From positions 11,695 through 75,694 of the IMG/VR virus record IMGVR_UViG_3300012984_000001: a stretch of 64,000 nt of DNA; one strand, written 5' to 3'. Below the pieces are notes generated by a model that saw only the letters and a list, made by a program, of their open reading frames with translations, did not search any database and had not been told where the DNA came from. How positions within the stretch are numbered: position 1 is the stretch's first letter; each line of letters starts with the position of its first letter. Position numbers and translations under genes: made by a program. Below, piece after piece: positions 7,551 through 58,689 of this stretch. The DNA is from a virus.

Positions 7551-7766
7551 TTAAAATAAATCAATTTGAACATTTGTTTGTTTTTTACTCTCGATAACTT
7601 CTATTCTTTCAGGATAAACTCGAATGTAATTATTGATGTTTATAACGAGTTGGCCTGTGAAGTTTTCACCATCAAGGCCAATATCCAGAAACTTTAGAAT
7701 TTGGTTTCCGTCTTCATTGTAAAGAATGTTTTTCTTTCGATGATAGGTTTGTTCTGGATTTAACAT
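7551..7766 (-). CDS. Hypothetical protein
   Basis: 71-aa ORF ending QIDLF (clamp-binding-like pentapeptide), next to dnaN. Confidence 0.6.
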   Translation of the reverse strand: MLNPEQTYHRKKNILYNEDGNQILKFLDIGLDGENFTGQLVININNYIRVYPERIEVIESKKQTNVQIDLF

Positions 7767-12147: not shown

Positions 12148-12996
12148 TTACTTTCTGAATGAATTCCCCTTGAATTCGATTATGTTAAACATATCGAACA
12201 TTCTGTCGTAAACTCGATTGCCATACTTTTCGCCAAATTCTTCAATTGCTATATCAACATCTCCTTCAAATCCTTCTTTGAAATTACAAGTAGCATGAGT
12301 AATCAATTTTCGGCTGTAGCGTTCTTCAAATATTTCTTTGAATAAATTAACTTTTCCGTAGTTACTAGCAATCTTTTCCGTCTTAACATCATCGAAAAAT
12401 CGTTTTCCACGCCACATTCTAGCCTCAAATTCATCTCGATCAATATCGGAGTTGCATTTCTCAAACATATTCACAACTTCATTAGCCGAATAACCTTTGA
12501 AAGTAGTTGATTCTATCTCTTTGAATATATGCTCAAAAACTCGCATGGTCGAAGTTTTTCCGTTTCCGTATGTTCCAACAAGCAAAATACCTTTATCGAA
12601 GCTAGGAACGCTTATTTTTGATAAATTTTCGCATCCAAAGAATCTTTCATCTTTAGAAAAATAATAAATCAAAGGTTCTAAGTTTTTAATAGTAACATTT
12701 TCAACTTTGATAAATGGCCTTTTGTTGATGGTATGAAAATTAAGTTTAAATAAATCATACAGATGTTTTGCAGATATTTTAAACTCAACATCTTCTTTAG
12801 GCTGTTGAATCTTATCAAAATAGTCAAAATTAGCTTTAATCTGTTCTGGAGTAGCCTGAGTAGATTTAGCTTCATAAGATTCAATCTGTTGCTTTTGTTC
12901 ATCACTTAAACTTTCTGGCTTCAAACTTTTCAAATGATTATATTTATTTACCCCTATGATTGACGAATTTTGTGGTTGTATTGCTTCCTGTGCCAT
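12148..12996 (-). CDS. DnaC/IstB-like AAA+ helicase loader
   Basis: Walker A GTYGNGKT, Walker B FFDD, YGNRVYDRMFDMFNIIEFKGNSFR tail. Confidence 0.8.
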   Translation of the reverse strand: MAQEAIQPQNSSIIGVNKYNHLKSLKPESLSDEQKQQIESYEAKSTQATPEQIKANFDYFDKIQQPKEDVEFKISAKHLYDLFKLNFHTINKRPFIKVENVTIKNLEPLIYYFSKDERFFGCENLSKISVPSFDKGILLVGTYGNGKTSTMRVFEHIFKEIESTTFKGYSANEVVNMFEKCNSDIDRDEFEARMWRGKRFFDDVKTEKIASNYGKVNLFKEIFEERYSRKLITHATCNFKEGFEGDVDIAIEEFGEKYGNRVYDRMFDMFNIIEFKGNSFRK

Positions 12997-13741
12997 TTGA
13001 TTTTGCTTTATTAATATTATCTACCCATTCTAATTTGAATCCTACCCAATTCTTGTCAAGAGAAATTTTGAGTGCTTCTTCAATAGAGAACTTTCTTTTA
13101 CCGCATTCTTCTACTAACGAATCAAAAGCAGTTTTTCCTAAAGATGCATTTTTTGATATTCGGTGGTTAACAAAATCATTCACCAAAACTTTGTTTGAAA
13201 CTAATTTCAGTAATTCACTTTTATAATCAAATTCATTATCATCTTTAATTTCAATTACATCTTCATTTGCATTTTCAATTGCTAAATGCTTAAGCAAGGC
13301 TTTAAGCGAATCTTTAGCACAAACAAGATTTTTAGTTAATTCATAAACTTCTAATACAGTTTTAGATTTTAAAGAATTTCTTAAACTTATATAATCTGAA
13401 TCATCAAGAATTGCTTTTGATTTTTTCCAAAACTGCCCTACAGTGCCGTTTACAGATTGTTTTTTAGCATATTCAAGCCTTTCCAGACTAATAGTTTTTA
13501 ATTTATCATTAATCCACCCATTCTCTACTTGCTTAAATTTCGCTTCAAGGGTAGTTTTAAGGGTAGCTTCTGAAATTCCGTTACAATAAAGCAATACTCT
13601 TCTTAAATCCAAAGGAATTATATCGTTTTGATGCTGATAAATTAAAAGGTCAATGTAACAAGCTCTTTCCTCAGGCAACATAGTTCTCGTGCCTTCATAA
13701 AAATCTTTAGAATAAAATAAAAAAGCGGGGTCTTTACTCAT
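12944..13741 (-). CDS. Replication initiator (YdaU/DUF1376-like N-terminus)
   Basis: KDPAFLFYSKDF...EERACYIDLL N-terminus; WVGFKLEW C-terminal domain; precedes the loader. Confidence 0.75.
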   Translation of the reverse strand: MSKDPAFLFYSKDFYEGTRTMLPEERACYIDLLIYQHQNDIIPLDLRRVLLYCNGISEATLKTTLEAKFKQVENGWINDKLKTISLERLEYAKKQSVNGTVGQFWKKSKAILDDSDYISLRNSLKSKTVLEVYELTKNLVCAKDSLKALLKHLAIENANEDVIEIKDDNEFDYKSELLKLVSNKVLVNDFVNHRISKNASLGKTAFDSLVEECGKRKFSIEEALKISLDKNWVGFKLEWVDNINKAKSNGTGSNTTTKFVNHRGK

Positions 13742-13788: not shown

Positions 13789-14301
13789 TTAAACTGTTAA
13801 CTTTTTTCCACATGTTGCGTTTGGCTTGTCGGTTTTTGTTAAGTTTAGCCTGTTGTTGAGAGCTAATTTCACTTTTTCGCTTATTGGCAATGTTCCAGAT
13901 AATTCATTGCATTTTCGATGCATTAAAACCATATTGTCCAAAGAATTTTTTCCACCAGAAGCCAAAGCTATTAGATGCTCAATAGTTATATCTTCAAACA
14001 ATTTTAATCCACATAAGAAACAAATGTCTCCGTCTCGTTCTAGTAGTTTTCTTTTTTCTTTTCTATATGTAGTTTGTCTTAATTCTTTAATTGGTGCGCC
14101 ATCCCATTTTTCAGAAGGATTTGAAAAACAAAAAAATGCATGTCTTGTATATTGATTAGAAGTTTTTCCCGACGAATAAACTACTCCGGTCTCTTTTCCT
14201 TTAAATCTGAGTAATTCATACTCGTTTGTGACAGGAAATATTTCGCACCCTCTAGCTTCGAGCCATTTTTTAAAAGATTGTATTTTTGAAGTTGCAATCA
14301 T
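13789..14301 (-). CDS. HNH endonuclease
   Basis: RDGDICFLCG...TIEHLIALASGGKNSLDNMVLMHRKCN. Confidence 0.85.
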   Translation of the reverse strand: MIATSKIQSFKKWLEARGCEIFPVTNEYELLRFKGKETGVVYSSGKTSNQYTRHAFFCFSNPSEKWDGAPIKELRQTTYRKEKRKLLERDGDICFLCGLKLFEDITIEHLIALASGGKNSLDNMVLMHRKCNELSGTLPISEKVKLALNNRLNLTKTDKPNATCGKKLTV

Positions 14302-14322: not shown

Positions 14323-14419
14323 AAACCCTTAAAAGTTTCGAGGTGGTGGCTCTACTCCTTTTAAGGGTTTGAAAAGAATGTCGTTAAATGTAACAAATCC
14401 ACCACAGATATTACGTAAC
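14323..14419 (-). promoter_or_regulatory. Two-hairpin kissing-loop 5' leader upstream of HNH/initiator genes
   Basis: 13-bp stem 14323-14335/14358-14370. On the - transcript its loop CCACCAC is complementary to the loop GUGGUGG of the upstream hairpin (14383-14419). Confidence 0.6.
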
Positions 14420-34780: not shown

Positions 34781-34965
34781 TTAATACTTGTCAAAATAAT
34801 AACAGCAACAAAGACGGTGAAATCCCGCATACAGTGATCGGCATAATGCTGTGCAAAAGTAAATTGTCGTGAGTAATTCCAAGATTACGATGTTTGTTTT
34901 TGAATCGGAGCGTAAAGAACATAGGAACCACTCCCGATTGCAACTTGGAAATGCAGAAGTATTGA
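34781..34965 (+). ncRNA. Unassigned multi-stem RNA with kissing loops
   Basis: Closing helix 34781-89/34957-65, internal hairpins, loop-loop pair TTCCAAG (34877-83)/CTTGGAA (34944-50). Confidence 0.55.
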
Positions 34966-34969
34966 TGTT

Positions 34970-35054
34970 AGATTTGTGGCTGAGCGATTGAAAGCAGTTG
35001 CGGGAAACGTGACGGGAAGTAGCTACCCCGAGGGTTCGAATCCCTCCAAATCTT
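34970..35054 (+). tRNA. Atypical class II (Ser-like) tRNA-like RNA, nominal anticodon GAA
   Basis: Acceptor AGATTTG/CAAATCT, T arm GAGGG-TTCGAAT-CCCTC, 16-nt variable arm; anticodon loop GGGAAAC lacks U33. Confidence 0.65.
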
Positions 35055-35055
35055 C

Positions 35056-35205: not shown

Positions 35206-35278
35206 TTCCACATAGCTCAGTCGGTAGAGCAAATGACTCATAATCATTAGGTCACAGGTTCAATCCCTGTTGTGGAAA
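35206..35278 (+). tRNA. tRNA with CAT anticodon (elongator Met or Ile2)
   Basis: Canonical cloverleaf TTCCACA/TGTGGAA, GCTC/GAGC, AATGA-CTCATAA-TCATT, ACAGG-TTCAATC-CCTGT; no initiator GGG/CCC; CCA not encoded. Confidence 0.92.
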
Positions 35279-35279
35279 C

Positions 35280-35577
35280 AATTAAGTTGTTAAGTTCTTT
35301 AATTTTTTGTTTGGACGGGAGTTCGACTCTCCCCGACTCCACGAATCGAGTCCGTGTAAAGTGTTCGATGGTTTGGCACACCGATATACAAAGTGCTATT
35401 TTTGGGGTCGCCTGGTTTTGACAGCAAAGCGAATTAGAAGAAATAGACTTAATTAAAAATAACTGCAAAAGTTATAAACCTTTTTGGAAACGAAGCAAAA
35501 CTTGCTGCGTAATCAACGAAATTTGTGATAGCGAAAATATCACTAAACAGCCGGAGGAGATTACTTCAAATCCGGTT
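35280..35577 (+). ncRNA. ssrA: Circularly permuted (two-piece) tmRNA
   Basis: Acceptor piece 35280-35341 (T arm GGGAG-TTCGACT-CTCCC, CGACTCC-A) precedes the 5' end GGGGTCG-CCTGGTTTTGAC at 35404; G3:U70 present; tag ORF 35465-35512 AKVINLFGNEAKLAA*. 3' end of the coding piece uncertain. Confidence 0.88.
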
Positions 35578-35606
35578 TAATTAAAAACAAAAAAACTACC
35601 AAAACT

Positions 35607-57874: not shown

Positions 57875-57903
57875 AAAAGCCCGATTTTATTCGGGCTTTT
57901 TTT
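57875..57903 (+). terminator. Rho-independent terminator after the capsid gene (likely bidirectional)
   Basis: AAAAGCCCGA-TTTTAT-TCGGGCTTTTTTT. Confidence 0.85.
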
Positions 57904-58532
57904 TATTTGATATGCCCCCATCTTTTGCCACTTATTATACGGCTTATAGTATTGGGTTTTACGTTATAAATCATTGACAATTCCTTTTGAGTTAAAGGAC
58001 TTGATTTTATTTCTCTAACTTCTTTTTCAGTAAGTTTCGATGCTACATGTGCCTCTCCTCTAGGCATTAATCCATGTTCTGCAGCATGCTGCATATTTCC
58101 TAGTCCGGTACTCCATTTTAAAGAAAAATATCGATTATCTTCTTTGTTTCCTTCCTTGCCATTTTCATAAAGCCCTATATGGTTTACTTCTGGGAGATTA
58201 TCGGGATTAGGAATAAAATTTTTAGCCACTTCTCTATGAACTTTTGCTTTATAATAATATCCTGGTCTTCTTAAACCACACAATAAATATCCATCAGGGT
58301 CTTTACTTTGTCTCATTATCCTTCCTTTCATAAAATAACTGCTAACACCATTTCCTCGCATTCTATCTAAGCTTTTTATACGTCCTAAATTATATTTGGC
58401 GTATTTTGGAACTACAACATTTGCTTCGTGGATTTTGTAGCCTTTATATTGAGTTTCTTTATACCCAGTTATGAGTATTATTTCTTCTCCTGTTTTTTCT
58501 TCTACAGCTTTTACAAGTTTATTTATATTCAT
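57903..58532 (-). CDS. NUMOD4/HNH-type homing endonuclease with C-terminal HTH
   Basis: NLGRIKSLDR, GYLLCGL, VHREVA..FIPNP..LPEVNH...NKEDN...LKWST..GNMQHA. Confidence 0.85.
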   Translation of the reverse strand: MNINKLVKAVEEKTGEEIILITGYKETQYKGYKIHEANVVVPKYAKYNLGRIKSLDRMRGNGVSSYFMKGRIMRQSKDPDGYLLCGLRRPGYYYKAKVHREVAKNFIPNPDNLPEVNHIGLYENGKEGNKEDNRYFSLKWSTGLGNMQHAAEHGLMPRGEAHVASKLTEKEVREIKSSPLTQKELSMIYNVKPNTISRIISGKRWGHIK

Positions 58533-58558: not shown

Positions 58559-58654
58559 AATACCGTTACTGCAATCGGCTCTGACCTCGATATTAGTAAC
58601 GGTATTCGTTTTGTTTCGTTAAGCAGTACTTTAGAGGTCAGAGTAAAATACTAC
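58559..58654 (-). promoter_or_regulatory. Two-hairpin kissing-loop 5' leader upstream of the HNH gene
   Basis: Stems 58559-70/58595-606 and 58623-33/58644-54; loops CTCTGACCTC (58579-88) and GAGGTCAGAG (58634-43) are perfectly complementary. Confidence 0.65.
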
Positions 58655-58658
58655 AATG

Positions 58659-58689
58659 CAAATATAGGTATTATTTTTTAATCAGCAAG
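58659..58689 (-). promoter_or_regulatory. Bacteroidota-type promoter
   Basis: CTTG-N19-TATATTTG on the - strand. Confidence 0.65.

Follow-up and report, generated by a model that had tools for sequence, protein, structure and literature searches.

A rare sequence type of an uncatalogued class of Bacteroidota-phage kissing-loop leaders precedes an HNH nuclease gene

On the minus strand of the 58559–58689 piece of the analysed phage DNA (the window, 64 000 nt), a structured 5′ leader RNA of about 100 nt precedes an HNH nuclease gene. This leader, referred to as copy 2, is a rare sequence type of an uncatalogued class of kissing-loop leaders from Bacteroidota phages. The most likely reading of its function, to which we assign a probability of about one half, is that of a cis-acting, promoter-proximal attenuator with a terminator tuned by the kissing loop.

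Results

Anatomy of the leader

The elements listed for this piece in an initial annotation (promoter, first hairpin HP1, kissing 10 nt loops, second hairpin HP2, U-run and ATG) are all present on the minus strand, as judged from the sequence and from folds. The promoter (58688–58659) consists of a TTG at −33 (58688–58686), a gap of 19 nt and a −7 box TATATTTG (58666–58659), which ends 4 nt before HP1. We take this to be a sigma-A-type −33/−7 promoter of Bacteroidota, in line with the Bacteroides consensus. Transcription would start around 58656–58654, at the base of HP1.

HP1 (58654–58623) has an 11 bp stem including two G-U pairs (−7.9 kcal/mol) and exposes the 10 nt loop L1, CUCUGACCUC (58643–58634). 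It is followed by a single-stranded, A-rich spacer of 15 nt (58622–58608), which contains the motif UAACGAAAC, and by the terminator-like hairpin HP2 (58607–58558; −19.5 kcal/mol). The latter consists of a lower stem, a 3 × 3 internal loop AAU/UGC, a 4 bp cap AUCG/CGAU and the loop sequence L2, GAGGUCAGAG (58588–58579), which is complementary to L1. Of the stem lengths given initially, 11 bp for HP1 was borne out, whereas the lower stem of HP2 has 13 bp instead of 12. ACUUUUU follows directly after HP2; the U-rich tract UUUACUUUUU (58560–58551) and a short A/U-rich 5′ UTR (together 58560–58533) lead to the ATG at 58532, 25 nt past HP2. The piece as first delimited omits the last base of the stem and the U-run.

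For the sense strand, the minimum free energy structure and the centroid both consist of exactly these two hairpins (−29.4 kcal/mol, z = −4.0), and none of 200 shuffles did equally well. The L1:L2 duplex amounts to −17.0 kcal/mol for the 10-mer and to −9.2 kcal/mol for the 7-mer core CUCUGAC/GUCAGAG, which is the conserved part of the loops and is common to the relative L033 (see below). By our own structural reasoning, all 10 bases of L1 and L2 cannot pair while both stems are closed. The chance of such an arrangement was estimated from the 1045 neighbouring hairpin pairs in the window on both strands. Loop–loop complements of at least 10 nt with at least 50% G+C are expected 0.015 times per window, and one was observed; without the G+C filter, when low-complexity sequence is allowed, the expectation for 10 nt is 0.135 per window.

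A third site complementary to the loop sequences (the barcodes) was not found in the genome, including the vicinity of the ATG. Pairing of the terminator loop also with the start codon region, a variant that we considered, does not apply to copy 2. A 12-mer resembling L1 outside the window is antisense to a tRNA gene and was discarded as a chance match.

The HNH gene and its locus

The leader precedes a free-standing homing-endonuclease-type gene (57903–58532, minus strand; 209 aa), the product of which has NUMOD4, an HNH core and a C-terminal HTH. The assignments rest on Pfam NUMOD4 (26.4 bits, cut-off 23.4) and PHROG 59 ‘HNH endonuclease’ (E = 2e-31), and it is the sole NUMOD4 gene of the genome. 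Upstream, the leftward operon ends in an intrinsic terminator (58725–58700, minus strand; a 6 bp GC-containing stem and a U7 run, from sequence and terminator scan). Downstream, the terminator scan places a bidirectional terminator (57875–57900) between the HNH gene and the convergent gene for a virion structural protein. Because of these two flanking terminators, promoter, leader and HNH gene form an independent transcription unit.

The occurrence of a nuclease gene at this position is polymorphic. It is absent in the closest relative, L038, as well as in L043, L044, L049 and L050, and HNH-type genes are present in L039, L045, L046 and L056. In L039, a homologue with 61% protein identity stands at the same position behind a different type of leader. 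Domains, intergenic position and presence/absence polymorphism are consistent with a free-standing homing endonuclease. The complete phage genome (75.7 kb, with direct terminal repeats) has exactly two homing-endonuclease-type genes, and these stand behind its only two kissing leaders. Among sequencing runs, the phage is fully represented in a single DNA run, labelled soil metagenome and perhaps its source sample; a freshwater metagenome run contains about 5% of its words, and RNA runs are not among the matches.

Copy 1 and the type A family

The other leader, copy 1, belongs to what we call type A (14426–14303, minus strand). Its −7 box (14426–14419) is followed by HP1 (14414–14390) with L1 GUGGUGG (14405–14399) and by HP2 (14370–14323) with L2 CCACCAC (14349–14343). 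An HNH gene (13789–14301) and then a DUF1376 replication gene (12944–13741) lie on its 3′ side. Similarity to the Flavobacterium elemo phages and to Olleya phage Harreka_1 covers the leader but not the genes around it. In these phages, the matching DNA is intergenic and unannotated; it is located upstream of replication genes, and an HNH gene is missing.

That the two copies share no primary sequence, as originally stated, agrees with the covariance model of the copy 1 family: copy 1 reaches 124.7 bits with this model, whereas the sense strand of copy 2 goes undetected, the sole match in copy 2 being antisense (17 bits, E = 0.7). Type A leaders have two loops of 7 nt and an HP2 with an invariant GAGUA/GAAA internal loop and a GAG/CUC cap; in copy 2, both are missing, and AAU/UGC and AUCG/CGAU are found instead.

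Two pattern scans of IMG/VR gave 28 distinct copies of type A, and 24 of these were aligned. Pairing extends to 96.5% of the cells of the alignment and to all cells (100%) of the kissing helix, with both partners exchanged in 14 pairs; none of 500 shuffles reached any of these measures. Pairing of the 7 nt loops is retained across seven fully compensated barcodes. Four divergent members have wholly different, yet perfectly complementary loops (GUUACGG/CCGUAAC, AUUCCGG/CCGGAAU, UGUGCAG/CUGCACA and UUCACGG/CCGUGAA). Among the type A pairs there are 28 G-U against two A-C, which indicates a constraint on the coding-strand RNA and not on duplex DNA. A TAnnTTTG box is found immediately upstream in 23 of the 28 leaders and also in the other cassettes.

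In copy 1, the internal loop lies at window positions 14357–14353 and 14339–14336; in elemo-type variants, a U replaces the bulged G. We read this loop as loop-E/sarcin-ricin-like, presumably one of the modules which typically bind proteins, and its invariance points to a conserved contact, either with a protein or tertiary, that only type A would have. Interpretation as a K-turn was ruled out by inspection.

The type A pattern was also searched in 185 579 prokaryote genomes. Of 33 matches, only two, on contigs of Bacteroidota metagenome-assembled genomes (MAGs), are real according to the model, so that type A is essentially phage-borne. These two (L084:7891–8000, minus strand; L088:3073–3198, plus strand) come from one Bacteroidota and one Vicingaceae MAG, in both cases from a short contig, and are probably phage or prophage DNA.

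Relatives and positional counterparts of copy 2

A single true sequence relative of copy 2, in L033, was found in IMG/VR by an exact 18-mer of the cap; four other matches were GC-rich and due to chance. The same 18-mer gave 56 matches in JGI metagenomes, none of which is real, and a comparison of copy 2 with phage DNA gave only chance matches in the promoter region. The leader of L033 has the promoter box, the CUCUGAC loop, the UAACGAAAC spacer motif and the identical 18 nt cap in common with copy 2, while both of its stems are entirely different with complementarity retained. L1 and L2 are identical in the two leaders, and there is no barcode covariation between these two sequences. The ORF behind the leader of L033 is unrelated, small and secreted-looking. 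A weak model match elsewhere in L033 (11780–11894) turned out to be an ordinary promoter with a tri-loop terminator and no kiss.

Positional counterparts were retrieved via the neighbouring virion structural protein. The architecture of copy 2 occurs with unrelated sequence at the same position, about 0.7–0.9 kb past the virion structural gene, in L039, L045, L046 and L056. The barcodes are CCACUAC/GUAGUGG (L039/L040 and L045), CCAUCAC/GUGAUGG (L046) and GGUCUGA/UCAGACC (L056); the step from L045 to L046, which are of type C, is a double compensatory change. Each of these leaders (L039/L040, L045, L046, L056) precedes an HNH-type ORF.

In L045 and L046, an inserted segment of about 0.8 kb comprises the promoter, the leader and the nuclease gene; it separates a terminator from the gene that follows (L045:5387–6195, opposite strand; same position in L046). 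The flanks of this insertion, the terminator of the structural gene and the next gene, are adjacent in L043, L044, L049 and L050. The leaders of L045 and L046 have 73% nucleotide identity, and their nuclease genes are unrelated (HNH_3+AP2 versus NUMOD4). Leaders and nuclease genes recombine independently, in L045/L046 and in L039 compared with the window. The spacer of type C leaders contains an additional small hairpin, which is GGUG-AAA-CACC in L045/L046 and UUAGUC-AACA-GACUAA in L039 (6019–6137, minus strand).

The covariation in types A and C shows loop–loop pairing in the class to be under selection. Together with the sequence-unrelated cassettes at orthologous positions, this bears out the earlier proposal of an RNA design that is conserved in structure and varies in its barcodes. 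An architecture scan with reverse-complement, direct, reverse and complement controls was biased by the choice of loci for type A, and its counts were not used as a test.

Downstream genes and barcodes

In all cassettes, a same-strand ORF begins 9–51 nt after HP2, and a T-run follows HP2 in every cassette type; both features fit a cis-acting leader. Most regions downstream of type A leaders are headed by replication initiators (DUF1376, DUF6291, Phg_2220_C, DnaD-like and PrimPol-DUF3987); Bro/KilAC antirepressors and RNase H also occur. The nuclease families found between type A leader and replication gene are HNH, NUMOD4-HNH_3-AP2, Endonuclease VII and T5orf172. Among the other cassettes, one precedes a NUMOD4-HNH_3-AP2 gene (L015), one a beta-solenoid gene (L032) and some precede genes of unknown kind.

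A homing-endonuclease-type gene directly follows about 11–12 of the 39 distinct cassettes (∼30%), and nuclease genes are more than 10-fold enriched behind kissing leaders. The suggested link to nuclease genes is thus a real enrichment, and it holds for both leaders of this genome, but the association is neither exclusive nor defining, as most type A copies head replication initiators.

Three kissing leaders that are unrelated in sequence stand before orthologous genes for a DEAD/SNF2 helicase and an N6/N4-methylase (L010, L025, L028). The replication modules of these contigs contain kissing leaders in tandem (L010:3280–3365 and 663–772; L025:5059–5161 and 7585–7689; L028:4755–4655 and 2237–2130), one before the helicase and methylase genes and a type A leader before the initiator, with different barcodes. 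Type A leaders with unusual barcodes are found before antirepressor-type genes in L023 (7912–8613, plus strand; AntA/KilAC) and L027 (3740–4480, minus strand; Bro-N/KilAC), an arrangement which recalls the RNA control of ant in P1/P7.

Barcodes that differ from cassette to cassette had been noted for the two copies of this genome, and they differ in all six genomes or contigs with two cassettes (G000, L010, L015, L025, L028 and L032). Across genomes, the main type A barcode is identical in many unrelated phages and occurs with four families of replication initiators. The mean G+C content of the barcodes is 59% as compared with about 32% in the genomes, and the duplex energies cluster between −8 and −11 kcal/mol, which suggests a tuned stability.

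Comparison with catalogued RNAs

The initial annotation had allowed for the case that the leader is one already described in Rfam. The whole window was searched at the gathering score and the surroundings of both copies at E ≤ 10 or E ≤ 1, and no leader was matched. We found no publication describing a kissing-terminator leader in Bacteroidota phages, and there is no Rfam family.

Elsewhere in the window, Rfam matches are limited to a tRNA and a permuted tmRNA. The RNA genes at 35206–35603 and 34970–35055 (both plus strand) comprise tRNA-Phe, tRNA-Met and the circularly permuted tmRNA (Rfam 63.7 bits), for which ARAGORN gives the tag peptide AKVINLFGNEAKLAA. In a candidate 185 nt kissing-loop RNA next to them (34781–34965, plus strand), the loops UUCCAAG/CUUGGAA are complementary, but the region folds no better than shuffles (z = +0.33).

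Discussion

Proposed mechanism

In the most likely reading, a host-type early promoter would initiate at the base of HP1, and HP2 with its U-run would act as an intrinsic terminator 25 nt before the start codon, so that HNH would be expressed by read-through only. A core of 7 bp, extended to 10 nt in copy 2, would join the loop of HP1 to that at the tip of the terminator hairpin, and this contact would set or switch the fraction of polymerases reading through. It could do so in either direction: the kiss may pre-organise the large terminator loop, resulting in more termination, or it may act as in the guanidine-IV riboswitch and sterically keep the stem from being completed, resulting in less. 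By our own estimate, such a steric conflict is conceivable with the 15 nt linker and the long stems of copy 2. The terminator activity of HP2, an effect of the kiss in either direction and any regulator are points which we infer. The earlier suggestion of a repressive leader is compatible with this, a repressive or gating leader being in our view the best reading.

A simple terminator scan did not call HP2 of copy 2, which is long and A/U-rich and has an interior of 24 nt. A mutually exclusive antiterminator helix is not visible, and an antiterminator or other regulator was not identified for kissing leaders. Type A leaders precede essential replication genes, which implies that termination is partial or conditional. 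Copy 2 would then exemplify a modular unit, made up of promoter, kissing leader and terminator, which Bacteroidota phages place before replication genes, antirepressors and mobile nuclease genes; it may have come with the free-standing HNH gene or may have been captured by that gene.

Relation to known systems

Parts of this design are known from other systems. In the lambdoid phages, the late promoter PR′ is followed by the terminator tR′, a short RNA (6S) results, and downstream genes need read-through, which is released by Q. Unlike the kissing leaders, 6S RNA has no kissing fold, and neither a Q-like factor nor a qut site was identified for the leaders. In plasmids of the pT181/pIP501 type, loop–loop kissing on the nascent rep leader decides on a terminator upstream of the replication genes; in these plasmids, the leader kisses a countertranscript made from the opposite strand, whereas both loops of the kissing leaders are on the sense RNA. 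Type III toxin–antitoxin systems (ToxI) consist of tandem RNA repeats and an endoribonuclease toxin, in contrast to the single, non-repeated unit of copy 2 and its gene of the NUMOD4/HNH DNA endonuclease type.

In T-even phages, terminators and hairpins hold the expression of homing endonucleases low (PMC2988022). In mobE, segB, segF and I-TevI, such elements are located at or before the gene and restrain the nuclease (PMC2988022), as the kissing leaders might do. They are, however, simple terminators or hairpins occluding the ribosome-binding site, which are bypassed by late promoters, and they have neither loop–loop pairing nor a dedicated cassette of promoter and leader.

The guanidine-IV riboswitch (mepA motif) has a similar architecture, with two hairpins of which the second is an intrinsic terminator, kissing loops, and a decision on termination that is made by the kiss and not by strand exchange (PMC11611296). 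There, the stem of the terminator is sterically kept from closing fully when its loop kisses that of the first hairpin (PMC11611296). Unlike guanidine-IV, with its ligand and its conserved loop nucleotides, the kissing leaders have freely varying Watson–Crick loops of 7–10 bp and no ligand, and occur in phages with nuclease or replication genes downstream. The guanidine-IV model of Rfam does not match copy 2 at the gathering score or at E ≤ 10, and the gene behind copy 2 encodes an HNH nuclease.

Same-strand complementarity within a phage leader is also found in P4 CI RNA (seqA/seqC), P1/P7 c4 and Gifsy-1 IsrK (PMC4825925; PMC12197685), which act on premature termination or on how replication or antirepressor genes are expressed, with specificity set by the loop sequence. 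In P4, pairing of the leader RNA promotes termination before the replication genes (PMC4825925), and IsrK exists both as a terminated small RNA and as read-through mRNA (PMC4825925; PMC12197685). These RNAs undergo processing and have their targets in trans, close to ribosome-binding sites or on Rho-dependent terminators; in kissing leaders, by contrast, the target is on the same molecule some 50 nt further downstream, in the loop at the tip of the putative intrinsic terminator. The Rfam families for c4, CI and IsrK do not match copy 2, and there is no sequence similarity.

Alternative interpretations

Copy 2 could also be the source of a trans-acting small RNA of about 100 nt, which kisses nascent leaders with the same barcode and exerts dose-dependent feedback or immunity-like control in the manner of P4 CI, P1/P7 c4 and Gifsy-1 IsrK. 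A strong promoter followed by a terminator should indeed yield an abundant short RNA, and since both pairing partners are on one RNA, dimers or pairing of the short RNA with a nascent leader could form. The difference in barcodes among the cassettes of one genome would fit, as would the downstream replication genes and antirepressors, which resemble those of P4 and P1 (PMC4825925; PMC12197685). We nevertheless consider this unlikely, given that every leader carries its own partner in cis, locally much more concentrated than one supplied in trans, that neither a third target site in the genome nor a stand-alone cassette without downstream ORF was seen, and that a main type A barcode common to many unrelated phages is unexpected for immunity specificity. 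Doubtful to a similar degree is a ligand-free, address-coded switch, in which each 7-mer barcode would be an orthogonal channel for abundant terminated leader RNA to kiss nascent leaders of like barcode, and the phage would sense genome dosage or a co-infecting relative. If true, barcode pairing would set the read-through into replication, antirepressor and selfish nuclease genes, and the cassette would represent an RNA-only immunity or copy control within an intrinsic terminator, spread as a mobile regulatory cassette. A function as a 5′ UTR element without termination control, which stabilises the 5′ end of the mRNA, guides its processing by RNases or insulates the A/U-rich region where translation starts, appears quite unlikely. 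It would suit the initiation of Bacteroidota without Shine–Dalgarno sequence at A/U-rich start regions, an RNA which begins at the base of HP1, a start codon in A/U-rich sequence that is never sequestered at 9–51 nt past HP2, and an A-rich spacer resembling the sites at which nucleases or single-strand binding proteins act. But the T-run after the stem, a hallmark of intrinsic terminators, is kept in all sequence-unrelated types, and a stabiliser would not need a precisely covarying loop–loop pairing of uniform strength.

It is distinctly improbable that the leader is a nut-, put- or qut-like loading site with the kissing fold as recognition surface for a phage or host antiterminator or another protein. 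The invariant GAGUA/GAAA loop of type A, presumably of a protein-binding type, and a promoter-proximal position that we take to correspond to lambda PR′-6S-tR′ would speak for it. Against it, copy 2, L033 and type C lack this internal loop, the absence of shared sequence among the other types leaves no evident common protein site, and no candidate factor was identified. Very improbable is a role as partner, antitoxin or guide specific for HNH, or as a DNA-level element (homing target, cruciform or protein half-sites), even though both HNH genes of the genome stand behind a kissing leader and nuclease genes are enriched behind such leaders. Leaders and nuclease genes recombine independently, most type A leaders are without a nuclease gene, one barcode goes with four families of replication initiators, and the excess of G-U over A-C pairs points to selection on one RNA strand and not on duplex DNA. 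The initial idea that the RNA might serve the HNH protein as partner or antitoxin is contradicted by the 61% homologue behind a different leader and by homologous leaders before unrelated nuclease genes, and an antitoxin in addition by the lack of tandem repeats of the type III kind and of a third barcode site in the genome. Least probable is a ligand-sensing riboswitch of the guanidine-IV kind, despite the like architecture of a hairpin loop kissing a terminator loop (PMC11611296): there is no Rfam match even at E ≤ 10, the loops are not conserved between types and thus offer no common pocket, no ligand should be needed for a Watson–Crick kiss of 7–10 bp (−8 to −17 kcal/mol), and nucleases and replication genes are found downstream in place of transporters.

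Biological significance

With at least four nuclease families inserted repeatedly right behind the leaders, and with the 0.8 kb insertions of leader plus HNH gene, the cassette is an example of a regulatory unit that moves together with homing endonucleases. Type A, with its pseudoknot covariation, could by itself be proposed as a new family to Rfam. If the function as a cis-acting attenuator holds, the kissing leaders would be a compact, modular RNA device by which Bacteroidota phages gate early genes, including selfish homing endonucleases. They would parallel the guanidine-IV mechanism in nature, but would work without a ligand and with loops that can be re-addressed freely. They might then serve as an orthogonal part for the engineering of Bacteroides and Flavobacterium, and they would be informative on how phages without Shine–Dalgarno-based control time the expression of their genes.
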